Of a DNA stretch of 64,000 bases, positions 12,161 to 46,822 are shown piece after piece. The notes beneath the pieces were generated by a model. The model saw nothing but the letters and a program-made list of their open reading frames with translations. It was not told where the DNA came from and did no database searches. Source of the DNA: a virus. The stretch lies in the IMG/VR virus record IMGVR_UViG_3300045738_001212, positions 64,001-128,000 of that record. The stretch is one strand, 5' to 3'. Within the stretch, counting starts at the first letter, position 1. Every line of letters starts with the position of its first letter. The translations under genes and the position numbers were made by a program.

Positions 12161-12242
12161 TGTCGTAATCCTCTGTATTTAGAATCAATAAATTTGCAGT
12201 ATATTGATAGCTACTCCAGTGGTGTCGCATGTCGTAATCCTC
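12161..12242 (-). CRISPR. mini-array D: 2 copies of the 13-nt repeat
   Basis: TGTCGTAATCCTC at 12161 and 12230 (+ strand), intergenic. Confidence 0.7.
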
Positions 12243-12252
12243 TTAACTGTCC

Positions 12253-12486
12253 TTAACGAGCCTTTTTGATATCGGCAGTTACCTTATCGAAAGGCTCCTT
12301 GACGTAATGAGAGTTAGCTTCAGTAACGACAACCGTTCCTTCTTTATCGGTCTGCTGCCCGTCGGCTTGCCCCGCAAAGGAGTAGTACTCGATGATTTTG
12401 TCAACTCTGACAGCTAACTGTTCGGTAGCTGCGCGGAGTGTCCCATGTACGTTGGTTTTATACTTATTTAGTTTTAGTGTTTTCAT
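12253..12486 (-). CDS. hypothetical protein
   Basis: ORF; start moved to MKTLK at 12486. Confidence 0.55.
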   Translation of the reverse strand: MKTLKLNKYKTNVHGTLRAATEQLAVRVDKIIEYYSFAGQADGQQTDKEGTVVVTEANSHYVKEPFDKVTADIKKAR

Positions 12487-12579
12487 AAAATTTAAGCGCG
12501 AGAGACAGAGCAGAAAGGTATTAACGACCCCGCCTCTCGCAAGTGTAGTTCCGCGTGACACTTCCCTACACTAAATTAA

Positions 12580-12745
12580 TGGGTGAGAGGATTCTCATTT
12601 ACCTCTATCGTTTCGGAGTCACAGCTTGAGTTTCAGTGAGAAACCCTACTTTGAACCAGCCCTTGTAAGCCCCCAGAGACGGTAATCTCCTGCAAACAAG
12701 CCCTGTACCTTAACTGCCGCGACAGCAGTTTATTCGGTCACACCC
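12580..12745 (-). ncRNA. structured ncRNA candidate with tRNA-like ends
   Basis: intergenic; 5' GGGTG pairs with 3' CACCC-A; T-arm-like AGAGG..AATCCTCT hairpin; internal hairpins. Confidence 0.6.
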
Positions 12746-12774
12746 TTCGCTGGCGATCAACCAGCAAAATTATT

Positions 12775-13107
12775 TTAAAGAACAAATATTTTAGAATCTT
12801 CTATGAAGACTCTGGGGTGATATTGATCAATATCTTTCCCGTCTTTTACATTTACAAATTTTCTTTTTTTGTTTACCCGCACTTGATGTTTCCATTTGGG
12901 GCGAGAAGACTTCTTTTCCTCTAGGGAACGAATGTCGCCCAAGTCTACGCAACCCGTAAGAGTTCGCTTGGTGATAGCGACATCCCCCATGTGCAAAGCG
13001 TGTGTGCGCTTAAGCACTACAGGTTTGTCGCCGTATGCGTGTGCTCGCTTACTGCCCTTAACCTCTAGGCACTTCTTCTTTGAATTGTAAATTACTACTA
13101 CTTGCAC
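12775..13107 (-). CDS. hypothetical basic protein
   Basis: GGAG RBS, GTG start. Confidence 0.55.
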   Translation of the reverse strand: MQVVVIYNSKKKCLEVKGSKRAHAYGDKPVVLKRTHALHMGDVAITKRTLTGCVDLGDIRSLEEKKSSRPKWKHQVRVNKKRKFVNVKDGKDIDQYHPRVFIEDSKIFVL

Positions 13108-13124
13108 GTTGTTATTTCTCCAGT

Positions 13125-13171
13125 TGTCGTAATCCTCTATAAATCGGTTAAGGGGTATTGTTGTAATCCTT
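13125..13171 (-). CRISPR. mini-array C: 2 repeats, 21-nt spacer
   Basis: TGTCGTAATCCTC at 13125 and TGTTGTAATCCTT at 13159, intergenic. Confidence 0.75.
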
Positions 13172-13662
13172 CAATTAACTCGCCAACTTGACCCTGCCAA
13201 GCCTTGATCCTCGTAATCGCTCTCTGATAAATACTGCTGAACTTCCTCATCGGAAGCGAAAAGCATATTCTTCTCATCAATGTAAAAAATACTTTTGTGG
13301 TAAGCCATCTTGCGAATTACGCCTCCATGAAAGCCTACTCCGCTATCTTCCTTACCGTGAACGCAGGTTATTTTAACTACGTTAGCTGCGTCACTCATAT
13401 ATTTGGCGCATAAGCCCAGCCCTTTCACTTTATAAATCCTGCCTCTGACGGGCTCATGGACGCTTTCGAACGCGCTCTTGATTTCTTCAATATCCTTATC
13501 AACACCATCATCCAGCCAATCGTCCTCATCATCTCCGTACTTCCAAGCTCCTTCAACCCCCTTGGTTCCTTCGTGGCCTACTGGACAGGAATGCTCCTTG
13601 GGCTGCTCTTCCGGCTTGTCCTCGTAAAAAACTTCAATTCCTAAAAGATGAGACTTTTTCAT
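13171..13662 (-). CDS. hypothetical acidic protein
   Basis: ORF translationally coupled to the ECF sigma gene. Confidence 0.55.
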   Translation of the reverse strand: MKKSHLLGIEVFYEDKPEEQPKEHSCPVGHEGTKGVEGAWKYGDDEDDWLDDGVDKDIEEIKSAFESVHEPVRGRIYKVKGLGLCAKYMSDAANVVKITCVHGKEDSGVGFHGGVIRKMAYHKSIFYIDEKNMLFASDEEVQQYLSESDYEDQGLAGSSWRVN

Positions 13663-14303
13663 AACAGATTTCTATTTTTTATTATCTTCCTTGCTCTTCG
13701 TCTAGCGTAAAATACCCTGCTCATAATCGTTCCTATCGAGCACTTCATTATTTTAGCAGCTTCGGCATAAGATTTTTCTTCTTCTATCACTAGCTCAATA
13801 ACCCTTTTTTGTTCGGGGTTCAGGCTCCCTTTTATCTGCGCCAAAACCTTCTTAAAGTGCTCAAAGCTTTCTTTCTCTTCAAGTCGGTTGCTGGGGCTTT
13901 CATCGTTAAGTAAGAGTATACCAGAACCTTGTAAGAAGTCAAGAGGATTTTTATCATTTTCTAAACAAAAATCTGCACAAAAATCTGAATAGGAAATCTC
14001 CTTAGATTTACGTCTTTTGTCCTGCCTGTAGAAATCATAGAAAGAATTGCGCCCAACCCTGAAAAACCACGTAGCAAAGGCACTTTTGAACTTAAAGGTC
14101 TTTATCCTCCTCCAAGATTTTACGCATGTAAGCTGCAAGATGTCTTTCGCGTCGGCTTCAGATACCCCCATTTTGAACAAAGAAGAGCGCACTAGGGCAC
14201 TATGACGCCCAAGAAGAACCTCGAATGCCTCCTTGCTACCTCTTTGACTCTTCTTTACTAAAGCTTCGTCTTTGAGGTTGGAAAGTTGAACTTTTTTGCT
14301 CAA
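13659..14303 (-). CDS. ECF (RpoE-like) sigma factor
   Basis: AFEVL, DILQ, F.TWFFRV..N, SYAEAAKIMKCSIGTIMSRVFYAR. Confidence 0.92.
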   Translation of the reverse strand: MSKKVQLSNLKDEALVKKSQRGSKEAFEVLLGRHSALVRSSLFKMGVSEADAKDILQLTCVKSWRRIKTFKFKSAFATWFFRVGRNSFYDFYRQDKRRKSKEISYSDFCADFCLENDKNPLDFLQGSGILLLNDESPSNRLEEKESFEHFKKVLAQIKGSLNPEQKRVIELVIEEEKSYAEAAKIMKCSIGTIMSRVFYARRRARKIIKNRNLL

Positions 14304-14324
14304 TTTTTCTTAAGCTACGGCGAA

Positions 14325-14556
14325 TGTTGTAATCCTCTATACCGATTGGAAGTACTATGTTGTGATCCTCTCAAATACTGGAACAACTCAAATGTTCTAA
14401 TCCTCTGTGCTTCTTTCATTCGGTGGTGTCGTAATCCTCACGCTTATCAAACGAGATGTCGTAATCCCCTTACTTGATACTAGGCTGTGCATAGTTCATC
14501 CCATGTTCTAATCCTCATCCTAATCCTAATCGATTTCGTGGTGTGTCGCAACCCTA
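14325..14556 (-). CRISPR. array B: 7 degenerate 13-nt repeats directly 3' of the tmRNA
   Basis: repeats at 14325, 14358, 14393, 14427, 14457, 14504, 14544 with unique 17-34-nt spacers. Confidence 0.85.
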
Positions 14557-14561
14557 AAAAA

Positions 14562-15020
14562 TGGTGGAGGCGGCGGGAATCGAACCCGCGTCTTTGGAGC
14601 CATCGGCTCAAATATACTACAAGCTTAATCAGTGCCATGTTCCTCGTATATAGCAGGTCACTGATTAAACCAACCGGGCCGCTCAAAGAGCGACTGGGAC
14701 TAACGTAAAACGTTAGACGCCTACACGAGTTTGAAGTCACATTTTATACTAGCGTTACAACCGCCCTAGTTTTTTGCTCGCTATCGACGCCCTAGCTCCT
14801 TAACGAGCATCCAGAGTAGGACGGGGCAGAACTTAAGCTGCCAGCGTGGCCTCTTCGGCCCAACCGAAACGAGCGAGAATCTCGTCTGCTTCAGCCAGAG
14901 AAGGAGCCATGTCAATATTACTATTGGCATATATGTTTTTAATGGAAGTTTTAAGAGGCCAACCATCATCCTCTGCTTGCAATCTGGCGTAAGATTCCAA
15001 ATCGAATCCAGTACGCCCCC
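14562..15020 (-). ncRNA. ssrA: tmRNA
   Basis: 5' GGGGGCGTACTGGATTCGA, 3' GGGTTCGATTCCCGCCGCCTCCACCA with G3-U pair; tag ORF 14833-14928 ANSN...ATLAA. Confidence 0.95.
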
Positions 15021-15534
15021 ACAAATATTACACTATAATTCACACCGATGGATTAATTGTTTCGCCTGTTTTGGGCTTTTTTTATTTCTTTTACTCCGTT
15101 TTTGGCAAATTCCTGACAGTGCTTTGCAAAAAAACCGTCCATCCCACATTTTTCCGCCCCTAAATATGAGTATAAGACTATAGCTAGGTTATTTTGCCCA
15201 GCTATCTGGCATTCGTCCGCCATGTCTTCAAGCACCGTCGCCAAAGTCTCTTCTCTGTTCTTCTTCCTCATTTAATTATTTTTAAAAAGATTTTTATCCT
15301 TCAACTCCGCTTTAAAGTTCCGTATCCCTTCCCATCTATAAACAGTGATCGGTATGGTAACGGGCGTCAACAATACATACCATTTTACTGTAAAAAACAC
15401 AAGATACAAAAGGTTACCCAATCCAAATAGCCAAGGATTTGATAACCAGCCCCAATCGTACTGAAACTGCTGCCATAAGAAGACCGAATAGGCGTCTAAT
15501 ACTCCTGAAAGATTTTCTGGATTCATGTCGTTTG

Positions 15535-15897
15535 TTATTTGATTTTTTTTGCGTGTCCCGCTTTTACCAAGAATTCGTTTACGGATTTGCCGTGGTATTT
15601 TCTCGTCCTTATGAAATTTTTAGTTAGTTGAACCTCGCCCAAGCACCTTCCGTATTTTCCGACACCAAGGGAAATCAGGGAAATTTCATTGTCACTGTTC
15701 TCAAGTATCTCCTTGAGCTTGGCCTTGGCTGCGAGCCCTTTCTTTTTCTCCACCTTGTCTCTCGTCCTGCTTTCGTAGGCGTCTATACCCGCTAACCTAA
15801 TGCGCTTCTTAACCCAAGTCTCAAAACCAAGGTCAATCATAGCGTCAATAGTGTCTCCGTCAACTACTTTAACTACTTTAGCTTTGTAGCGATACAT
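15535..15897 (-). CDS. thermonuclease (SNase-like)
   Basis: VVDGDTID, IRLAGIDAYE, GKYGR.L. Confidence 0.9.
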   Translation of the reverse strand: MYRYKAKVVKVVDGDTIDAMIDLGFETWVKKRIRLAGIDAYESRTRDKVEKKKGLAAKAKLKEILENSDNEISLISLGVGKYGRCLGEVQLTKNFIRTRKYHGKSVNEFLVKAGHAKKIK

Positions 15898-15902
15898 CTT
15901 AG

Positions 15903-16094
15903 CTATTCCCCAGCCCACTCTTCTTGTATTACGTGGTCTATTAAGCCCTCTATCCAGTCATTAAACGTATCTTGATCGAAGTCAGTCTCCCCCGTTTCCG
16001 CCCTGTACATGTCGAGAAACTCTTCATCCACCTCCATGAGGAGTTCTCTCTTGTTGCCCTTCACTTCTAGTTCTCTTATTACTTTTATTTTCAT
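15903..16094 (-). CDS. small acidic hypothetical protein
   Basis: AGGAG RBS, ORF tiled. Confidence 0.5.
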   Translation of the reverse strand: MKIKVIRELEVKGNKRELLMEVDEEFLDMYRAETGETDFDQDTFNDWIEGLIDHVIQEEWAGE

Positions 16095-16263
16095 TAATAG
16101 CTCCTATTTTAGCCAGAAGTTCGTCTATCAAATCAAGCTGAGACATTGCGTAGACGAATCTCGTTCTGCTTAGATTGCTACCATGAGGGCTATATTTGTG
16201 CAACTCTTTTGTTCGTAGTTTTTTCCTTTTTTCAAGGATTTCTATAATCTTGTGTTTATCCAT
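16024..16263 (-). CDS. hypothetical protein immediately downstream of array A
   Basis: start moved to MDKHK at 16263 because the longer ORF runs into the array. Confidence 0.5.
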   Translation of the reverse strand: MDKHKIIEILEKRKKLRTKELHKYSPHGSNLSRTRFVYAMSQLDLIDELLAKIGAINENKSNKRTRSEGQQERTPHGGG

Positions 16264-16272
16264 ATACTCGTA

Positions 16273-16894
16273 TGTCGTAATCCTCTTAATATCGTCGGGA
16301 CGAAGCATGTCGCAATCCTCTTGTGCAGTCCAACCATATTTGTGTTCTAATCCTCTTAAAATCAGACTATGCGTACCCTGCGTGTTCTAATCCTCTTAAA
16401 ATATACAGGAGCAATCATGTTGCAATCCTCACTCTTAAAAGTTCACTACGGCGTGCTGTGTTGTAATCCTCTTTAAATCGCAAGCTGCTCATGTGTTATA
16501 ATCCTCTTGGTCCAAAGTATGACTGATGTTGTAATCCTCTTATACTTAAATTCGGTTACATGAGGTGCGTGTTGTAATCCTCGCTGGTTTTGTTGGTAAT
16601 GTTTTAATCCTCTTATACTTAAAAAACGCGCACAGCTTGAAATGTTTTAATCCTCTCAAATTTTACCACGATACTCCATGTTGTAATCCTCTCATGCTAA
16701 AATTACTTCTTCTGTTGTCGTAATCCTCTTTAACAGCCGTCGCAATGTTTTAATCCTCATACTTAAACTGTGCAGATTGACTCCCTGTGTTGTAATCCTC
16801 TTATACTTAAATTAGGATAAATCCGAATTATGTTTTAATCCTCTTACTTAAATTGTCAAATTCAGTCATCAGTAGGGTAAGTGTTTCAATCCTC
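16273..16894 (-). CRISPR. array A: 17 degenerate 13-nt repeats (minus-strand consensus GAGGATTACAACA) with unique spacers
   Basis: repeats start (+ strand) at 16273, 16308, 16343, 16383, 16418, 16459, 16494, 16527, 16570, 16600, 16643, 16679, 16716, 16746, 16788, 16831, 16882; period 30-51 nt; the first copy reads GAGGATTGAAAC. Confidence 0.9.
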
Positions 16895-17137
16895 TTATGC
16901 TTGTTGATTCCTTATTTGCCTTATGGCTCTACGATGCATCCTCATGTGCTGGGGGTGAGCTTCGCACTCGCCATCAATTAATTCCATATCACATATCTCG
17001 CATTTAGGCTCGTTTAAGTCAGTCGAATGGTGTGTTTCACGGTAATGTTGTAATCCTAAATCTTCTGCTGTCGAAGGAAACTTGCAGTTAGCCCTTTCGA
17101 GTTCAAGAATAGTTATGTTTCTTTCTTCTTCAGTCAT
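16895..17137 (-). CDS. 80-aa protein with CxxC-x8-CxxH putative Zn finger, between nuclease and array
   Basis: start overlaps the nuclease stop (ATGACTGA); its TAA abuts repeat 1 of array A. Confidence 0.6.
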   Translation of the reverse strand: MTEEERNITILELERANCKFPSTAEDLGLQHYRETHHSTDLNEPKCEICDMELIDGECEAHPQHMRMHRRAIRQIRNQQA

Positions 17138-18608
17138 TCTTACCTCCCAGCACGTAATTCTTAATGTTCATCGCCGCCAGCTTGTCGCGGTCATTCACCA
17201 CTCCACACTCAGGACACTCCCACACGCGCTGTGAGAGCTTTAAATCGTTGTAGATGTACCCACAGCCACACTTTTTAGATGTAGGCTCAAAACGGTCAAT
17301 TCTGATCATGTGTTTACCCGAGTGGTCGGCCTTATATTGGAACTTCGTGAAGAAGCTCCCCCAAGCAACGTCACTGATTCGGCGACTCATACCTCGCTGC
17401 TGGGCTCGACCATTGCGCTTATATTTTCCGTCCTTACCCTTTATGGGAGCTTTCTTTTCCTTCATTTGGGCAATGTTCAAATCCTCAACCGCAAAAGCAT
17501 TGAAGGGCATGTCTACTAGCGATCTGCTAAGTTCATGAGTGAAGTCGTCTCTCTTGTTTTTAATAGCCTCATCGATCTTCGCGCAAACCAGTCTTTGCTT
17601 ATTGTAGTTCTTACTCTTGAACTCCTTTCTAGCGAGCCGCCTTTGTCGAATTTTCTTTCGACGCAAGAGTCTTTGGTCGGTTTTGTACGGAGATAGCTTA
17701 TCGTCCGAGTATTCAAGCCCGAACTTGTCTAGGAAAACAGAGTTCTCAATTTTCGATTCGTCTGAAAGAGTTATGTAGTTTTTAATCCCTACGTCAATCC
17801 CAACAGTATTGGACTCATCAAATTCTTTCTTCTCTGGCATCGGAACTCCAGTATCCACGGGAATGAATACGTAATATTTATTCGTTGGAGTCCGAGTGAA
17901 AACGCACATGCCGAGTTTGGCCTTTGGGTGCTTCTCCAAAAACTCTTGCATGTTGATGTGCTGCTTAAACTTAATCCAAGTTTTGCACAGGGGCAGCTTG
18001 AATCGATTTTTTTCCCACTCCCATTTCATTTGGTTCGCTTCGCAATCAAAGTATTGGTTGTCCATCCAACTTCTAAAACGGGGGAATCCTTTATTTGGTT
18101 TTTTTGCAAAGTCTTTTTTGCTCTTCCAAAAGCCCTTAACTCTACGCTTTTTAAAACCCTCCCTATATGAAACTGCCAGCCTTTTGTATTGCCCTCCGAC
18201 AAGCCTACTCGGTGTTTCTTTTATCCAGTTGTATTCTTTGTCGTCGCCCTTTCTAAGCTTACGAAAATCTTTATCGGCCTGAGCAATGTCCAGCAACGGA
18301 AACCCAGAACATCTAATCTCTTTCTGGACTGCCTTATGTTCGTCTGACTTCTCTTCGTATACCCCGTCAGCAAGGTCTTTTTTCATTTTATCCTTAAGGT
18401 CTTGAAGATGTTTTTCGCCCCCAGACTTTTTCCATTCCTCGGTTCGTTCGTTTCTGGTATCCCAGTTTTTGGTTTGTCGGTCTACTTGCCAATTCCAATA
18501 CTTGCGGGCAGCGGCGAAGCTTTTGCTGAGAAAGTGGGTGCCGTCTTTATTTGTGTCAATTCGGTATTTTATGGCGATGACGATATTCTTAAGTTCTTTT
18601 TTGTCCAT
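17130..18608 (-). CDS. tnpB: TnpB/Cas12f-like RNA-guided RuvC endonuclease
   Basis: RuvC-I VGIDVG, RuvC-II AVEDL, Zn ribbon CGCG...CPEC, RuvC-III DRDKLAAMNI; GFPRFR motif; 492 aa. Confidence 0.92.
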   Translation of the reverse strand: MDKKELKNIVIAIKYRIDTNKDGTHFLSKSFAAARKYWNWQVDRQTKNWDTRNERTEEWKKSGGEKHLQDLKDKMKKDLADGVYEEKSDEHKAVQKEIRCSGFPLLDIAQADKDFRKLRKGDDKEYNWIKETPSRLVGGQYKRLAVSYREGFKKRRVKGFWKSKKDFAKKPNKGFPRFRSWMDNQYFDCEANQMKWEWEKNRFKLPLCKTWIKFKQHINMQEFLEKHPKAKLGMCVFTRTPTNKYYVFIPVDTGVPMPEKKEFDESNTVGIDVGIKNYITLSDESKIENSVFLDKFGLEYSDDKLSPYKTDQRLLRRKKIRQRRLARKEFKSKNYNKQRLVCAKIDEAIKNKRDDFTHELSRSLVDMPFNAFAVEDLNIAQMKEKKAPIKGKDGKYKRNGRAQQRGMSRRISDVAWGSFFTKFQYKADHSGKHMIRIDRFEPTSKKCGCGYIYNDLKLSQRVWECPECGVVNDRDKLAAMNIKNYVLGGKND

Positions 18609-18621
18609 AATTATAATCCTT

Positions 18622-18788
18622 ATTAAGTTTGGGGGTGGGAGGGAGGATTATTTCACTCCCACCCCCGAGGATTTTGTTGCCCCGAAAGCGACCCTTATGT
18701 AGACGAGCTATATAAGAAATCTTAATCTCTCGTATCTGACAACCGTAACTTCCCGTCCAACCGACGGTAGAGTTCGTATCAGCGAACT
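18622..18788 (-). ncRNA. tracr/scout-like structured RNA (5' leader of the nuclease gene)
   Basis: several hairpins plus anti-repeat segments AATCCTC (18667-18673), TAATCCTC (18643-18650) and GTTGT (18739-18743). Confidence 0.6.
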
Positions 18789-18794
18789 ATGAAG

Positions 18795-18822
18795 AGTATA
18801 CCTGAAACTGTTTTGAAGTCAA
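18795..18822 (-). promoter_or_regulatory. sigma70-type promoter for leader RNA, nuclease and array A
   Basis: TTGACT-16-TATACT. Confidence 0.75.
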
Positions 18823-19979
18823 GAGTTTTTTCCGAAAACTTCGTTCGACTGTTGGGTAACGCGAACGAAAGTGGCGCACTTGGGCATATCCTTTAGCCTT
18901 CTTGCTCCGATGTAAGTGCAGGTAGAGCGTAATCCACCAAGAATATCTTCTATCGTGCGCTTAACAAGTCCTCTATGTTCTACCCTAACCGTTTTCCCTT
19001 CGGACGAACGATAGTCCGCAACGCCACCGTTGTGCTTTTTCATGGCCGTCTCGGAACTCATTCCGTAAAAAGTCTTATATTTTTTGCCATCTATTTCTTC
19101 TTCTTGTCCTTCGCACTCCGTATGTCCAGCCAACATCCCGCCAAGCATGACAAAATCAGCACCTCCACCAAAAGCCTTGGCAACGTCCCCAACACAGGTA
19201 CAACCGCCATCAGCCATAATATACCCGCCAACGCCATGAGCGGCGTCGGCACACTCAACCACCGCGCTAAATTGGGGATAACCAACACCAGTCTGAATAC
19301 GAGTAGTGCAAACAGAACCACTTCCAATACCAACCTTGACGATATCTGCTCCATTTAAAATTAATTGCTCCGTCATCTCGCCAGTGACAACGTTCCCAGC
19401 AATGATAATAAGTGCTGGGTGCTCTTCCCTGACCCGTTTAATAAAGTCACAAAACCTCGCGGTATAGCCATTGGCTGCGTCAATACAAACAAATTGAGTA
19501 TGATAAAAATTCCAAGTAATATTATGGAGGTAGTCCATATCGTCAAATTTATTTTCGTCGTATTTAATGCCAATAGAGGGAGATATATGTTCATAAATTC
19601 TATTTTGCCAACAAGCTGAGTCTGGATCATGTTTCCAGTCCGCTGAGTTAGCTTCCTTGCTTTCCTGTGTTTTGTAAACTCCGTAGCCATCCATCTTGTG
19701 TAGCCATCTTTTTATATCGTTGTGTTTGCTGATGCAGGTAAGCATACGGTGTCGAGCGAAAGCCTTTGCCATCTCAAAGGTTCCGACTGTATCCATATTT
19801 GAAGCTACAATTGGAACGCCTTTCCAACCGTAAGCTTTTGGGTCAGCACCTTCCCCGCCAGCGTTAGGAAAAGTAAACTCGCGAACCAAGTCAACTTCCT
19901 TACGAGAAGTTAAGGTGGAACGCTTCGGGCGAAGAAGAACGTCCTTGTAGTCTAATTTTATTTCTGGTTCAATTCTCAC
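18819..19979 (-). CDS. guaC: GMP reductase
   Basis: [48 protein letters not shown]. Confidence 0.95.
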
Positions 19980-21444: not shown

Positions 21445-22151
21445 TTATTTGCGAAATCTAAAGCTCTGGACGCGCTCTTGCAGGACATTATGTTCACGGC
21501 GAATGAGGCTAGAAAAGTATCTCCTGCCCCCGACAAGTCTTGGACTTCTCTCGCTTTAAATGATGGGTGTAGTTCTTTTTGGTAACGGCAGCCTTTCTCT
21601 CCTTGGGTAACTATAAGTTTATCCATCCAGACGTTATCAAAGTCTTCATTATCTTTCTTGTAGTGTTCCTTGCTTTTTTCGTACTCTTGCTGGTTTATAA
21701 CGAAGAATCTCATATCGCGCCCCAAGGGCAAAATAAAATTTTTCTTACTATGCACGAAGGTATTCGGATGGCTCTTACAAATCCAAGCAATATCTAGATT
21801 AGTAAGGAAGCCCTTATTATAGTCTGAGACGATTACCCCGTCATATCCCTCTAGACACCCCGGAGTTTGCTCGAACTTCTCCTTGGTGTGATCGTTTTCA
21901 TCAACCCTAAGAAGCATTTGGTTAGTTTTCATATCAACGTATCTTGATTTGATGATATGATTTTTGTTAGTAAATATGTCGCATTCGACACCGTGAGCCT
22001 CGACATTAGCTTGCACGTTTTTCGCCATCCCCCCGTTTGAAATTTCCTCTACTGGATTAAAAACAGGAACAGGTGCCTCTGGGCAAATCCTATCGCAGTC
22101 TCCATACTTAAACTTATCCGTGCAACTATCGCCTATTACTAAAAATTTCAT
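21399..22151 (-). CDS. HldA/RfaE-like heptose-7-phosphate kinase (PfkB family)
   Basis: VIGD...D, RICPEAPVPV, GGMAKNV, SDYNKG, DLSGAGDTF. Confidence 0.85.
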   Translation of the reverse strand: MKFLVIGDSCTDKFKYGDCDRICPEAPVPVFNPVEEISNGGMAKNVQANVEAHGVECDIFTNKNHIIKSRYVDMKTNQMLLRVDENDHTKEKFEQTPGCLEGYDGVIVSDYNKGFLTNLDIAWICKSHPNTFVHSKKNFILPLGRDMRFFVINQQEYEKSKEHYKKDNEDFDNVWMDKLIVTQGEKGCRYQKELHPSFKAREVQDLSGAGDTFLASFAVNIMSCKSASRALDFANKCASRVVAKRGVTTV

Positions 22152-22759
22152 ATTAACCTTTGGCTTTCTTTGTCTTTGAAAAGTTTTTTCTCCGTGCAGT
22201 AATAACACCTAAGCAGATCGCTGTCTATCCCTAGCAGACGCCTTATTTCTACCAATTCGTATCCCGACAACGCCCTAAAGTCTGCTGTAGAAAGGTCTAC
22301 GTTACACCTACTGCCCGCCATTACGCCATTGTAAAAGACAAACCTCTCTTCTTCTCCAAACTCGTATCCCTCTGGATACAGATACTTGCAAACCCACATG
22401 AACAAATTTCTGCGCCACCTTCTCATCTTCTTAGCTGACCCCATCGTGTAGCCGATAACGAAAGCTTCATCTTTGACCAGCAGCCCCCTGCCTAAAACAA
22501 TATGTATACAATCATGAGTAAATAAATCTACTGCTCCAGTAAATAATCTAGATGTAAAATATTTAGGATTTTCAGTTAACTTAATCATTAATGGAACATC
22601 TTCTTGGGCCAGCGCAAAAGACTTCATGCTGTCTTTCGCTTTGCCTAACGTGATCTCCCTGCCTAAGCGGATATGCCACGCTTCAGCCCTTTCTTGGGCT
22701 ATCCGTTTCTGCCACCTCTCTTCTCCCTTAGCATACGCTTTGTGTTGTAGAGGGGTCAT
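22148..22759 (-). CDS. hypothetical protein with HD..H..E motif (Coq4-like)
   Basis: HDCIHIVLG...DEAFV. Confidence 0.5.
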   Translation of the reverse strand: MTPLQHKAYAKGEERWQKRIAQERAEAWHIRLGREITLGKAKDSMKSFALAQEDVPLMIKLTENPKYFTSRLFTGAVDLFTHDCIHIVLGRGLLVKDEAFVIGYTMGSAKKMRRWRRNLFMWVCKYLYPEGYEFGEEERFVFYNGVMAGSRCNVDLSTADFRALSGYELVEIRRLLGIDSDLLRCYYCTEKKLFKDKESQRLI

Positions 22760-42730: not shown

Positions 42731-43050
42731 GTCAAAAGGGAAGAGCCCCTTTCAGCCCACCGGGAGTAAACGGCAGGGTTTCCCAAGGTGAGTGAATTTC
42801 ACAGGACTTGAGCGTGGGTCCATATCCGAAGGGCAAACCGCTTTCAAAAAAAACTGACAGGTAGTCCCTGTCGCATAACCCCGGCGTGATGCGGGTAATC
42901 ACTGTAATGAGTTTTTAGCACAGTTTCTCACCCTGTAATAAGGGAGGTGATCCAAAGTACTTGGTTGTACGTGGGCTGGCTACCCACTTAAAAAACTTTA
43001 GCCCTCAAAAGGAAATCAATGTACCCTTACCCCCCAAAAGGGGGTATTGT
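42731..43050 (+). ncRNA. large structured ncRNA or leader candidate (~320 nt)
   Basis: non-coding, starts at a promoter, contains a run of 8 or more hairpins. Confidence 0.5.
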
Positions 43051-43107
43051 ACCTATTTGCTAAAAGGAAAGTGCAACATACGATACGTAAGATACGTAAG
43101 ATACGAT

Positions 43108-43749
43108 ATGAGTAACATATACATTGGTCTCGCTGGCGTCGCCGGATCAGGCAAAGACCTTTTCTTTTCCATGCTCTCCGAAAGGATGCAGTGCCAACGC
43201 TTTTCCCTCGCAGACGCCCTTAAGAAAGAAGTGTCCGAGTTCACCAAATGGTCCTACGGCATAGACCCACTCACTTGCTCCCGTAAGGACAAGAACCTAA
43301 TTAGACCCTTCCTTGTCTTTCACGGCTCCATGAAAAGAAGCAGGACTAATGGTAGATATTGGATAGATCAAATGAATAATAAAATTTTAAAAAATAAAAC
43401 AACCAGTAAGATCGTCATAATAACAGACGTTAGGTATGACGACTACCCTAGAGACGAGGCATATTGGTTGAAAAAGGAGCTTGGGGGCTACCTTGTTCAC
43501 ATTTCTTTGTACGATGACATCCCTAGATTAAGTTCATCTTACAAGAAATATAAACCCCCCGCGAACGAGGAAGAAAGAAGGAATGACCCCAAATTGAAAG
43601 CCCAAGCTGATTATTTAATCGATTGGGGAAGGGTCAAAGGAGTCGTTAAGCCGCAACTCATACCGTTTGTAGATGAGTTCATTGAGTGGCTCAATAGAAA
43701 AGAAGACGGACTCTCAGCTTACGAAAAAGCTGAAGAAGGACGGGTGTGA
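43108..43749 (+). CDS. deoxynucleoside monophosphate kinase
   Basis: GVAGSGKD, SLADALK, YWI, IITDVRY..E. Confidence 0.85.
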   Translation: MSNIYIGLAGVAGSGKDLFFSMLSERMQCQRFSLADALKKEVSEFTKWSYGIDPLTCSRKDKNLIRPFLVFHGSMKRSRTNGRYWIDQMNNKILKNKTTSKIVIITDVRYDDYPRDEAYWLKKELGGYLVHISLYDDIPRLSSSYKKYKPPANEEERRNDPKLKAQADYLIDWGRVKGVVKPQLIPFVDEFIEWLNRKEDGLSAYEKAEEGRV

Positions 43750-44314: not shown

Positions 44315-44617
44315 ATGACTGATACAAATACAAATAAAGAACCAAGTGAGTGGACAAAACGCGAAATCGGAGCCTTGTGGATACGGGAAAGTCCTAATCA
44401 AAAATACTTTTCTGGACACTTCACGACTCAAGATGAAATGGGAGTGGAAAAAAAGGTTAAAGTGGTGATCTTCACCAACAAGCATAAAAAGAAAGATAAC
44501 CATCCCGACTTCCGCATTTACCGCTCAGAACCCCAAGCCGCACAGGCGACTGCTGCGACGGAAGAAGTAGCAGAAGTTATGGGAGAAACTAACGTGGTAG
44601 AAGAAGAATTAATCTAA
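44315..44617 (+). CDS. DUF736-like putative ssDNA-binding protein
   Basis: IGALW, Y.SG, PDFRIY, acidic tail; TTGACA-17-TACATT promoter. Confidence 0.6.
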   Translation: MTDTNTNKEPSEWTKREIGALWIRESPNQKYFSGHFTTQDEMGVEKKVKVVIFTNKHKKKDNHPDFRIYRSEPQAAQATAATEEVAEVMGETNVVEEELI

Positions 44618-45718
44618 ATGTCTTCAATCGCCTTCAATGTACCGATAAATTCGGTCTCGTTCGGGCAAATATCGACCCTCCTGTTAAAGACCTATCACAA
44701 GAAGTCTTTGGCAGGAGAGTCCTTGCCTGAGCTTAAGGTTTTCCCTTTGGGTGGGCAGGTTGACCTTTCCTCTCAGAAAAAAGACGACCTGTTCGATCTG
44801 TGGTTGAACAAAAGAAGCACGGAAGCGTTGGAGAGTCATAAAAAAAGCGATCCATGTTTTAAGCTGTGGCATTTAGTTGGATCAATAGAATCTTTCTCCT
44901 GTGATCAAACTCTATTTTCTTTTTATGAACTAAATTCTCCGACCAAGGTTGAAACCAATATAGTAAAGAATAATAGAACTATTTTTAGTTCCCAATACAC
45001 TTGCGACATATTTAAAAGCTCGGGAGTAGACACTGAATACGTCCCCCTAGCATTTGATGACTTCAATTTCAAAAGACTAGAGGGCAAGGAGTACTTTTCT
45101 GACGGAAGAATAACTTTTGGGCTTGTCGGCAAAATGGAGAGAAGAAAGAGGCACGATAAAATCCTTAGTGCGTGGGCTAAAAAATTTGGAGATGATAAAA
45201 GATACGCCCTACATTGCGCTCTATACAATCCCTTCCTCAACCCAGAGCAAAACAACGCCTTCGTCCACAAAGCCCTGAATGGAAAGAAATATTTTAATAT
45301 AAACTTCTTGAATTACATGGGCGAAAATGAAACCTATAATGATTACCTTAATTCAATAGATATAATCATCGGCATGTCAGGCGGCGAAGGGTGGGGACTC
45401 CCAGAATTTCATACGGTTGCAATAGGTAAACACGGAATAATTATGGACGCTCACGGATATAAGGGATGGGCAAATGAAAAAAATGTTACCTTGGTCGGTC
45501 CCTCTGGGAAAATTGATGCTGCTGACGGTATATTTTTCAGTAAAGACGTAAACCATAATCAAGGTCAAATCTTTGATTTCGATGAGGATGATTTTATATC
45601 TGCCTGTGAAGAAACCATAAAGAAATATGAGGCTAACCCCAAAAACGAAGAAGGCATTAAGCTTCAAAAAGAGTTTACAAAAGACAAGTTCCTAAACAAT
45701 ATACTCTCAAAGATATGA
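44618..45718 (+). CDS. GT4-family glycosyltransferase
   Basis: GKME.RK, EGWGLPEF. Confidence 0.8.
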   Translation: MSSIAFNVPINSVSFGQISTLLLKTYHKKSLAGESLPELKVFPLGGQVDLSSQKKDDLFDLWLNKRSTEALESHKKSDPCFKLWHLVGSIESFSCDQTLFSFYELNSPTKVETNIVKNNRTIFSSQYTCDIFKSSGVDTEYVPLAFDDFNFKRLEGKEYFSDGRITFGLVGKMERRKRHDKILSAWAKKFGDDKRYALHCALYNPFLNPEQNNAFVHKALNGKKYFNINFLNYMGENETYNDYLNSIDIIIGMSGGEGWGLPEFHTVAIGKHGIIMDAHGYKGWANEKNVTLVGPSGKIDAADGIFFSKDVNHNQGQIFDFDEDDFISACEETIKKYEANPKNEEGIKLQKEFTKDKFLNNILSKI

Positions 45719-46474: not shown

Positions 46475-46822
46475 ATGCCAGTATATGAGTTTGAACATCC
46501 CGAGACGGGAGAAATCGTAGACGTAGTGCAAAAGATGAGTGGCGAACACGTTTACGAAAACCCCAAAGGAGTAAAATGGAACAGGGTATGGATGTCTCCG
46601 AACGCCGCCATAAAGGACAACCTAATTAACGCGGACACGACAGCCGAAGAATTCGTGAGAAAAACCAAAGAGAAGAACTATAATGTAGGAGAGATGTGGG
46701 ACTTATCTAAAGAACTCAGCGAAAAAAGAAAAAGAGTAGCAGGTAAAGATCATGTCAAAGAAAAAACGAAAAAAGCATACCAAAAAAAATGCGACAAGGC
46801 CCACCCTCATGGAAACGACTAA
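46475..46822 (+). CDS. FmdB-like small protein
   Basis: MPVYEF N-terminus. Confidence 0.5.
   Translation: MPVYEFEHPETGEIVDVVQKMSGEHVYENPKGVKWNRVWMSPNAAIKDNLINADTTAEEFVRKTKEKNYNVGEMWDLSKELSEKRKRVAGKDHVKEKTKKAYQKKCDKAHPHGND

Follow-up and report, generated by a model that had tools for sequence, protein, structure and literature searches.

A phage-borne TnpB with a conserved upstream RNA and dispersed 15-nt repeats, possibly a guide RNA split in two

The omegaRNA of a canonical TnpB overlaps the 3' end of the gene and stops at the right end of the transposon, and ISDra2, an IS200/IS605 TnpB with a 3' omegaRNA, is one of the known systems closest to the locus described here. Others are the transposon-CRISPR intermediates (TranC) and the miniature type V systems with a tracrRNA (Cas12f), which the locus resembles in its TnpB-like RuvC effector (about 480-580 aa), a separate candidate scaffold RNA with short repeat-derived handles 5' of the putative guides, an array downstream of and co-oriented with the effector, the absence of an adaptation module and a short predicted pairing near the guide. 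A tracrRNA with an anti-repeat is typical of type V subtypes B, E, F, G and K, V-F, V-K and many V-U systems do without the adaptation genes cas1/cas2, and type V spacers are expected to match foreign genetic elements. The published path by which TnpB became Cas12 is a split of the omegaRNA into tracrRNA and crRNA (Jin et al. 2025, as cited in PMC13565253). Close as well are the omegaRNA arrays and Sigma-TnpB of Bacteroidota, for which half-repeat evolution has been proposed (Altae-Tran et al. 2023, PMC10691335); Sigma-TnpB is likewise a non-mobile TnpB relative with an ECF sigma neighbour and irregular repeats with sharp scaffold/guide edges.

Our window, the whole 64,000-nt stretch that was analysed, corresponds to positions 64,001-128,000 of the genome record of an uncultured T4-like phage with a whole genome of 158 kb. 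It encodes a nuclease followed by a small protein:

17130..18608, minus strand: gene of a TnpB-family RNA-guided nuclease, 492 aa, with RuvC D-E-D triad, zinc ribbon and profile matches
16895..17137, minus strand: small Cys-rich ORF of 80 aa that overlaps the stop codon of TnpB and is conserved as a protein at 7 loci

The 492-aa protein, which the earlier note had picked out for its three RuvC motifs and Zn ribbon, carries VGIDVG, AVEDL, NDRD and CxC...CxxC and matches the Pfam families OrfB_IS605, Cas12f1-like_TNB and HTH, the first two above their cut-offs. It scores 193.6 bits against the NCBIfam model guided_TnpB (cut-off 100), and stays below the cut-offs of the equivalog models IS200_TnpB (174, cut-off 425) and IS607_TnpB (119, cut-off 350). 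Profile comparison gave 1.8e-31 for ISDra2 TnpB and 3e-19 for LaTranC, where the match is confined to the C-terminal RuvC part, and the folds nearest to the AF2 model are the ISDra2 and ISFba1 TnpB structures, then Cas12f. The catalytic residues D272, E375 and D475, like the cysteines of the zinc ribbon, do not vary among 14 members of a clade of 18 proteins at 58% identity or more (next relatives, at most 39%), suggesting that guided nuclease activity is under selection. The protein is a genuine TnpB whose RuvC triad is intact. The earlier note saw no tnpA, IS ends or cas1/cas2; in the whole phage genome neither a Y1 TnpA transposase nor Cas1 was found, IS copies are lacking and TnpB is present in one copy; TnpA, transposon ends and multiple TnpB copies, which would associate it with a transposon, are missing, and relatives carry the module in at least three different 5' contexts. 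The protein shares with ISDra2 its fold, domain order, catalytic residues and a guided_TnpB score over cut-off, but differs in its single copy per genome, a helical N-terminal lobe enlarged in the AF2 model, a conserved 5' RNA gene and the lack of TnpA, transposon ends and a 3' omegaRNA.

The absence of a 3' omegaRNA holds for the clade and is new here. The small Cys-rich ORF sits in the usual place of the 3' omegaRNA, and its indels among the 7 loci stay in frame. Synonymous divergence of TnpB is flat (0.42-0.60) along nearly the whole gene, with no synonymous constraint at its 3' end, and Rfam returned no match there. In TnpB relatives at 30-39% identity, by contrast, the usual 3' omegaRNA is present and its end is sharp. 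In L084, a TnpB-less relative, the small ORF instead comes after a weak HNH-like gene.

Upstream of tnpB lies a conserved RNA gene of about 170 nt, also new here, in which covarying helices stand between a promoter and a terminator of its own:

18795..18822, minus strand: sigma-70-type early promoter, TTGACT / TATACT, found by promoter scan
18625..18794, minus strand: structured leader RNA of about 170 nt, from an alignment of 7 loci and a covariance model
18609..18621, minus strand: core-like element AAGGATTATAATT, directly adjoining the start codon of TnpB and doubling as Shine-Dalgarno region

The promoter (spacer of 16 nt by the scanner's count) drives both the leader RNA and TnpB and is retained ahead of tnpB throughout the clade; promoters of this type occur at eight minus-strand sites in the early region. 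The leader folds into four helices, a single-stranded AAAAUCCUC linker and a GC hairpin, followed in most relatives by the U tract of a terminator. Among 47 predicted pairs in the 7-locus alignment, 11 show compensatory changes. Searches with the covariance model give a single copy in each genome, in every case beside TnpB, and a scan of the collection returned the leader from TnpB-bearing contigs only; it has no Rfam match and carries no guide of its own. Its exposed AAUCCUC(U) is invariant and complementary over 7-8 nt to the invariant half of the repeat described below, and since both partners are invariant there is no covariation between them to score; the ISDra2 pseudoknot beside the guide measures only about 5 nt (PMC10097598). 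Array units are predicted to pair with the leader at -21.5 kcal/mol, against -18.7 +/- 1.4 kcal/mol with shuffled leaders. The tracr-like RNA of the earlier note exists and is conserved, with an invariant AATCCTC, but its proposed second anti-repeat GUUGU (18739-18743) varies between relatives and is buried in a helix. We regard the leader as a candidate tracr-like scaffold, with an sRNA or an attenuator as the alternatives.

The repeat itself is real and larger than first reported:

16273..16894, minus strand: array of 17 cores with unique spacers of 17-38 nt, beginning with the base that follows the stop codon of the small ORF
14325..14516, minus strand: array of 6 cores between a tmRNA gene and an ECF-type sigma gene
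13659..14303, minus strand: ECF-type sigma factor gene, 214 aa
13125..13171, minus strand: two cores, the second ending 17 nt ahead of the GTG start of a 110-aa ORF (orf110)
12161..12242, minus strand: two cores, the second ending 19 nt ahead of the ATG of a 60-aa ORF (orf60)

A search for the core as GAGGATTRNRACA with up to one mismatch gave 33 matches in the window, all on the minus strand, where chance predicts 1.3 +/- 1.2 (maximum 6 in 100 shuffles), and the exact core occurs 37 times on the minus and never on the plus strand of the genome. In total about 45 copies, all on the transcribed strand, form eight intergenic clusters across 45 kb, including clusters beyond the window at genome positions 42838-43187, 44567-44736 and 46679-46726. 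Within the window, the earlier count of 17 plus 11 copies comes close to our 17 plus 10 clear copies with further degenerate ones. A position table of 64 copies, every one of them parallel to transcription, resolves a 15-nt core with sharp bounds, its 3' edge included (A at -1 in 81%, never G at +13, about 0 bits in the flanks), which is sometimes extended 5' by about 11 nt and reads (A)GAGGAUU-RNR-ACA in RNA. A 25-nt element precedes the second core of 12161..12242 and recurs twice in a distant array. Cores follow one another at irregular distances of 30-51 nt. Every spacer has at least 17 nt and, as had been claimed, each is unique: compared in pairs, the spacers are no more alike than shuffled controls. 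The regular 25-40-nt repeats and similar-size spacers of type V CRISPR arrays are not what we find, and the idea that these are 13-nt half-repeats shrunk from CRISPR repeats is best regarded as conjectural. The CRISPR-like ending on which that idea drew is genuine in that GAGGATTGAAAC is the exact 3' end of many bacterial CRISPR repeats in the collection of genomes, among them repeats of Nitrosomonas, Deinococcus/Trueperaceae, Binatia and Dehalococcoidia, but in the array of 17 it is confined to the first copy.

Our single best reading, tentative and well short of an even chance, is that the phage has domesticated a TnpB module and that the guide RNA of this module comes in two separate parts. 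The fuller proposition of a phage-borne split-omegaRNA system, comprising active TnpB, an upstream tracr-like scaffold, about 45 minimal guide units and host RNases, and no Cas1/Cas2, we hold slightly more loosely still. The first reading of this locus is partly supported. The strong early promoter would make abundant tracr-like scaffold RNA of about 170 nt ending at its own terminator, and read-through would run on through the genes of TnpB and the small Cys-rich protein into the 17-unit array, giving a single transcript. A unit would consist of the 15-nt handle and at least 17 nt of unique sequence; the (A)GAGGAUU of the handle would pair with the exposed linker of the scaffold, TnpB would be loaded by reading the remaining ACA-proximal bases, and the next 17-20 nt or so would guide RuvC cleavage of matching DNA. 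Precursors would probably be cut at GG|AUU by a host RNase E-type enzyme, and the units scattered in the early region would supply the same TnpB effector. Anatomy, conservation and co-occurrence are what the sequences show, whereas pairing, loading, processing, guide function and targets are putative. In favour of a split guide, the leader is the only conserved RNA of a TnpB module that lacks a 3' omegaRNA, and its linker complements the repeat in predicted duplexes stronger than those with shuffled leaders; the sharp 3' edge of the repeat, the minimum spacer length of 17 nt, the uniqueness of the spacers and arrays that share the orientation and transcription of tnpB point the same way. Such a system would still differ from TranC and Cas12f in its 15-nt core, irregular spacing, eight dispersed clusters and 5'-UTR units, in a scaffold encoded upstream, in a protein that scores as TnpB and not as Cas12 and in a guide function that is putative.

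Across mosaic relatives, the co-occurrence of leader, repeat and TnpB is supported as strict by the sequences at hand. The repeat is present in the TnpB-bearing phages G000, G004, L167, L168, L169, L170 and L173, and exact copies number zero in the records of 19 TnpB-less relatives, including ones with the same early genes; L015, for instance, shares orf110 (77%) and the SNase gene (73%), yet its orthologous junction is without the repeat. Two further relatives, G001 and G002, have arrays in fragmentary records in which TnpB status is unreadable. The largest cluster always directly follows the TnpB operon, with 17 copies here and 0, 1, 3 or 4 in relatives, which together with the strict co-occurrence favours a split guide. 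In L087/L012, TnpB and leader come with a single core before tnpB, and no array was detected in the contig. The ECF sigma orthologue tracks the repeat as strictly as TnpB does (62-65% identity in the TnpB-bearing G004 and L167, at most 33% in TnpB-less relatives). Sigma-TnpB itself is nuclease-dead, without the zinc finger and with repeats of >60 bp (PMC10691335), whereas this phage has an intact nuclease, a sigma gene at a distance of 3 kb and repeats of 15 nt. The exception of L087/L012, the array-bearing fragments G001 and G002 and the equally strict co-occurrence of the sigma gene count against a split guide.

Spacer matches point both ways. We compared 69 spacers with 5 Mb of related phage DNA and with the phage's own genome, and 68 of them found no match there, their best scores equalling shuffled controls. 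The remaining one, from G002, matches 25/25 nt of a gene in L012, another phage of the group, in antisense (E = 1.6e-7), and this gene is the only other place in IMG/VR where the 25-mer occurs, a match that may speak for guide function. The allele in our genome matches 24/27:

22151..22759, minus strand: conserved phage gene, 203 aa (205 aa in L012), whose L012 allele the G002 spacer matches in full

Since the match begins 3 nt past the core, a TAM-proximal seed would be mismatched. This mismatch and the 68 matchless spacers weigh against the split guide, as do clusters scattered over 45 kb, irregular spacing, a complement of 7-8 nt and single cores placed as 5'-UTR elements of ordinary genes.

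Those single cores lead to a close rival, doubtful in its own right, in which the core is an RNA-level cis element of early polycistronic transcripts that serves processing or translation control. It would sit immediately beyond the stretch that a ribosome covers on the following gene, where host RNase E, the leader as an anti-core sRNA, or both would recognise it, the leader AAUCCUC mainly masking the SD-like core before tnpB (attenuator plus anti-SD); arrays would be tandem duplications that work as sponges or processing cassettes and yield no guides, and TnpB a homing-endonuclease-like passenger. Single cores do precede the start codons of sigma, orf110, orf60, a cupin gene and a Myb-like ORF by 17-19 nt, and the last core stands 17-21 nt ahead of a start codon in 9 of about 17 cases, with downstream genes mostly without an SD. 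One core lies 18 nt ahead of the ATG of the G004 orthologue of orf110, and the last spacer of the 6-core array, which G004 and L167 have in conserved form, makes up the 5' UTR of sigma. Such 5'-UTR "spacers" are conserved across phages whose TnpB is 66-78% identical, so that the core, standing before ordinary genes, looks like a 5'-UTR element. In three phages the first core of the distant array is at the transcript start. A core-like element precedes tnpB itself, in L087 and L086 26-28 nt before the ATG, L087 does without arrays, and TnpB plus leader occupies the site of the HNH-like gene of L084. T4 RAUUW sites fit the GG|AUU of the core, and T4-type RNase E sites are, like it, short single-stranded GGAUU-containing sites between cistrons; CsrB/RsmZ sponge RNAs are non-coding transcripts with many tandem GGA-containing repeats and variable spacers. 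GG|AUU is invariant in all core copies and, as a match of sequence, is a perfect RNase E motif RN|WUU (PMC5222698), and in the folded array the core has a mean unpaired probability of 0.54 against 0.47 overall. However, those sites are degenerate 5-7-mers read by the host, and here the 15-nt core is near-invariant and confined to TnpB-bearing phages; 15 nt are conserved although RNase E needs about 5, a motif read by a host enzyme would not explain its absence from 19 TnpB-less relatives sharing early genes, 17 tandem copies without an intervening ORF are unaccounted for, and an intact nuclease is left without a guide source.

It is improbable that the units, independently of TnpB, mimic mature crRNAs of host type I/III CRISPR-Cas systems with repeats ending in GGATTANAAC (8-nt 5' tag AUUxxxAC plus spacer), as decoys (RNA anti-CRISPRs) or as guides that hijack host Cas complexes. 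The presence of GAGGATTGAAAC at the end of many real repeats, a Cas6 cut 8 nt from the repeat end that would fall at GAGG|AUU, the one spacer matching a gene of a competing phage and the known virus-borne mini-arrays and RNA anti-CRISPRs would all suit such mimicry. But GAAAC is present in only 1-2 of about 45 copies, 60/64 have A and not G at tag position 4, the repeat hairpin or 5' half is absent, spacers are much shorter than those of type I/III, and the co-occurrence with TnpB and leader would be left unexplained. Least probable of all is a core acting on DNA, as an ECF-type sigma promoter element, activator box, iterons or centromere-like sites: TTRNAAC resembles ECF -35 elements and the co-occurring sigma gene is itself preceded by the motif, but no -10-like element follows at a fixed distance (about 0 bits from +14 to +37), helical phasing is absent, a start codon 17-19 nt after the core would put the transcript start inside the gene, and the cores are uniformly co-oriented with transcription, one beginning 7 nt past a sigma-70-type promoter.

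If the guide RNA of this phage TnpB is indeed split in two, the module would represent an intermediate between TnpB and Cas12 that is still alive, and it would serve in conflicts among phages or of phage with host.

Matches to the 15-nt repeat core, (A)GAGGATT-RNR-ACA, number 33 in the window against 1.3 expected, and exact copies number 37 genome-wide, in both cases on the minus strand only. This bears out and enlarges the repeat observation of the earlier note: the cores are grouped in eight intergenic clusters that extend from 36.9 kb to 81.5 kb of the genome, and three of these clusters are outside the window. The record is a single sequence of 157,997 bp with a G+C content of 43%, and the minus strand carries every gene in the region of the finding. 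Eight near-identical sigma-70-type promoters (TTGACW, 16-18 nt, TATACT) mark out an early region some 48 kb long, to which these genes belong; the same early stretch also encodes an SNase-like nuclease, and a further early-type promoter (TTGACT, spacer, TATACT) lies within the ECF sigma gene at window 13915-13942 (-).

Features of the window
12576-12766 (-): manA RNA motif, in the early region
13659-14303 (-): ECF-type sigma factor gene, same stretch
14562-15020 (-): complete tmRNA gene (123.9 bits in Rfam, not detected by ARAGORN; the related phages G004 and L010 have a tmRNA too)
18819-19979 (-): GMP-reductase/IMPDH-family gene, same stretch

Tabulated by position, 64 copies from four phages define a sharply bounded core: position -1 is A in 81% of them, and GAGGATT, semi-variable R, N and R positions and ACA follow, after which the next base is never G; the flanks carry zero information on both sides. 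Roughly one third of the units (a core plus its downstream spacer) bear an AT-rich 5' extension, TTTAAGTATAA, which was ruled out as an independent promoter because it occurs almost exclusively together with a core. The gaps that separate neighbouring cores span 17-38 nt. The spacers are unique, as previously claimed, with no similarity among them above a shuffled null; recent duplication into families was likewise rejected in the phage under study, and sharing is limited to orthologous or UTR spacers. A 25-nt element, AGCAAATTTATTGAYTCYAAATAYA, lies immediately 5' of three cores (window 12173-12200 (-); genome 42886-42915 and 43012-43040, both outside the window) that belong to two clusters 33 kb apart, so whole units seem to have been copied between clusters; the element is also found in the related phage G001. 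In the orthologous array behind the promoter at genome 43223, the first core at the transcript start is identical in three phages while copy numbers and spacers differ, a variation equally expected from neutral drift of unconstrained linkers at such divergence. Directly after the 9-copy array, outside the window, lie two small RNA genes with terminators (genome 42540-42800 (-)), which have a different promoter type and one of which shows ACCUCCU.

The intact RuvC protein with a Zn ribbon reported earlier is a TnpB with the full set of catalytic and zinc-binding residues, whose fold is nearest to the ISDra2 and ISFba1 TnpB proteins, with Cas12f next; neither TnpA nor Cas1 was found in the genome, as had been noted. 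Database searches placed it in a tight clade comprising some 18 proteins with identities of at least 58%, with the next relatives at no more than 39%, and ten clade loci were read, given as G000 (the phage under study), G004 (= L050/L086), L012/L087 and L167-L174. The earlier note had allowed for a conventional omegaRNA at the gene 3' end, which was not found. A small Cys-rich ORF of 63-83 aa (Cys-ORF), conserved downstream, overlaps the tnpB stop codon, and synonymous divergence stays flat through to the tnpB end, which together rule out an omegaRNA embedded there, whereas relatives at 30-39% identity do have a 3' omegaRNA of the conventional kind, whose right end is sharp. The clade has thus lost the canonical omegaRNA position, and its sole conserved RNA is the upstream one. 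In L173 (5771-7143), a contig otherwise near-identical to L169, the TnpB frame is broken into a 975-nt part and a 133-aa ORF after it, which means a pseudogene or a fault in the assembly. In the TnpB-less contig L084 (8519-9474), the Cys-ORF comes after a 247-aa protein whose weak HNH matches stay below Pfam cut-offs, and the two share the ATGA stop/start overlap seen with TnpB. The Cys-ORF site resembles a landing pad for selfish nucleases, and occupation by the TnpB module of the place held in L084 by this HNH-like gene suggests a homing-endonuclease-like life style.

At every clade locus with an upstream region available, an early-type promoter is followed by an RNA of about 170 nt, the leader, a candidate tracr-like scaffold. 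It folds into two 5' hairpins, a long-range helix around an inner domain, and a GC-rich hairpin followed in most loci by a U tract; compensatory changes occur in 11 of the 47 predicted pairs, and an invariant single-stranded AAAAUCCUC(UA) lies ahead of the GC-rich hairpin. A covariance model located one copy per genome, always adjoining tnpB, and a collection-wide pattern scan confined the leader to TnpB-bearing contigs. A known RNA family was ruled out, since an Rfam search gave chance-level matches alone (CRISPR-DR9, 17 bits, E = 2.4). The leader linker is complementary to the invariant half of the core over 7 bp in the phage under study and 8 bp in other loci, and predicted unit-leader pairing is somewhat stronger than pairing with shuffled leaders, by about 2 SD. 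A second anti-repeat proposed earlier, GUUGU, is not supported, as it differs among loci and forms one strand of helix P3.

The distribution of the core follows that of this module. Exact copies are absent from the whole records of 19 TnpB-less related phages, some of which have a GMP-reductase gene at 90% to that of the phage under study, versus 80% for the TnpB-bearing G004; in TnpB-less L015, orf110 (a 110-aa ORF, 77%) and the SNase gene (73%) are also retained, and orf110 abuts the preceding ORF with no core between. The proposed presence of the repeat near TnpB orthologues held for all TnpB-bearing contigs that extend far enough downstream, each of which has cores on the same strand as tnpB. 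The L012 phage, with both TnpB and leader, has just one core in cis. Copies directly after the TnpB/Cys-ORF operon range from none (L167) through one (L169, L170 and L173), three (G004) and four (L168) to 17 in the phage under study, and additional single cores are found ahead of orf110 and of the sigma gene. The association of the core with the sigma orthologue is as strict as that with TnpB, and this, like the lone core of the L012 phage, counts against guides. Collection scans found further array-bearing contigs in G001, G002 and G004 only, and a genome collection scan returned genuine CRISPR arrays and coding repeats and no locus of the TnpB clade. An unrelated viral contig (L003, 3885-3927 (-)) has a -10-like box between two GAGGATTGAAACA copies separated by 17 nt, the second of which is the ribosome-binding site of an ORF; this is probably a coincidence, and L003 was rejected as a further carrier because it shares no genes with the phage under study. 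A functional link of the repeat with the TnpB/leader module is likely.

Judged from sequence, the units may be guides, a reading we hold tentatively. A nuclease that selection keeps intact needs a guide, and the leader, which ends at its own terminator, carries no obvious one, leaving the arrays as the only candidates. They are co-transcribed with the module in the type V order, handle then variable part, and the minimum variable length of 17 nt is compatible with the 16-nt guide of the ISDra2 TnpB (PMC10097598). In ISDra2 no more than about 5 nt pair next to the guide to form the conserved pseudoknot (PMC10097598), which makes a short handle conceivable, and the published route to Cas12 (Jin et al. 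2025, cited through PMC13565253) leads through a division of the omegaRNA into tracrRNA and crRNA. One G002 spacer is antisense, over 25 of 25 nt, to a conserved gene (205 aa) in the L012 phage, and IMG/VR contains this 25-mer nowhere else; the gene has no Pfam match, and its allele in the phage under study (window 22151-22759 (-)) agrees at 24 of 27 positions. The 53-nt spacer concerned (L004/L244, 131-196) contains a 25-27-nt fragment antisense to L012 5378-5402 with unrelated sequence on both sides, like a captured piece.

Against guides, that match is the single case for 69 spacers searched in 5 Mb of related phage DNA and starts 3 nt after the core, and the other spacers score like shuffled controls; no spacer matches the phage's own genome, which rules out self-targeting or homing guides, and the 26-28-nt inserts following the leader in L086 and L087 have no matches. 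Many cores are singletons or terminal copies 17-21 nt 5' of the start codons of ordinary genes, and the "spacers" there are conserved across phages, as in the sigma 5' UTR of G000, G004 and L167; the 17-nt spacer after the Cys-ORF is conserved in five phages, and a core-like element precedes tnpB too, abutting the ATG or with 26-28 nt in between. These features would fit units that are targets or processing signals instead, an alternative only slightly less probable than guides, and GG|AUU in the core is a perfect RNase E core motif (PMC5222698). Micro-ORFs or ordinary ribosome-binding sites were rejected, with TG after just about 12% of cores and inconsistent reading frames. Mimicry of crRNA tags is conceivable because GAGGATTGAAAC does end many bacterial CRISPR repeats, as the earlier note held, but 60 of 64 copies have A where such repeats have G, and the units have no repeat hairpin. 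A DNA-level role as promoter or iteron is unlikely given the absolute strand bias, the lack of a conserved downstream element and start codons too near, the last two also excluding sigma-70, T4-late or ECF promoter arrays.

Should the units prove to be guides, no shorter natural repeat would be known for any effector of the Cas12/TnpB type, the nuclease would be a very compact programmable one that works with a scaffold supplied in trans and crRNAs about 30 nt long, and a whole class of arrays would have been missed by standard CRISPR finders. Even if they are not, a TnpB clade with a 5' structured RNA gene in place of a 3' omegaRNA is new, as is a 15-nt RNA signal moving with the TnpB module through mosaic phage genomes.
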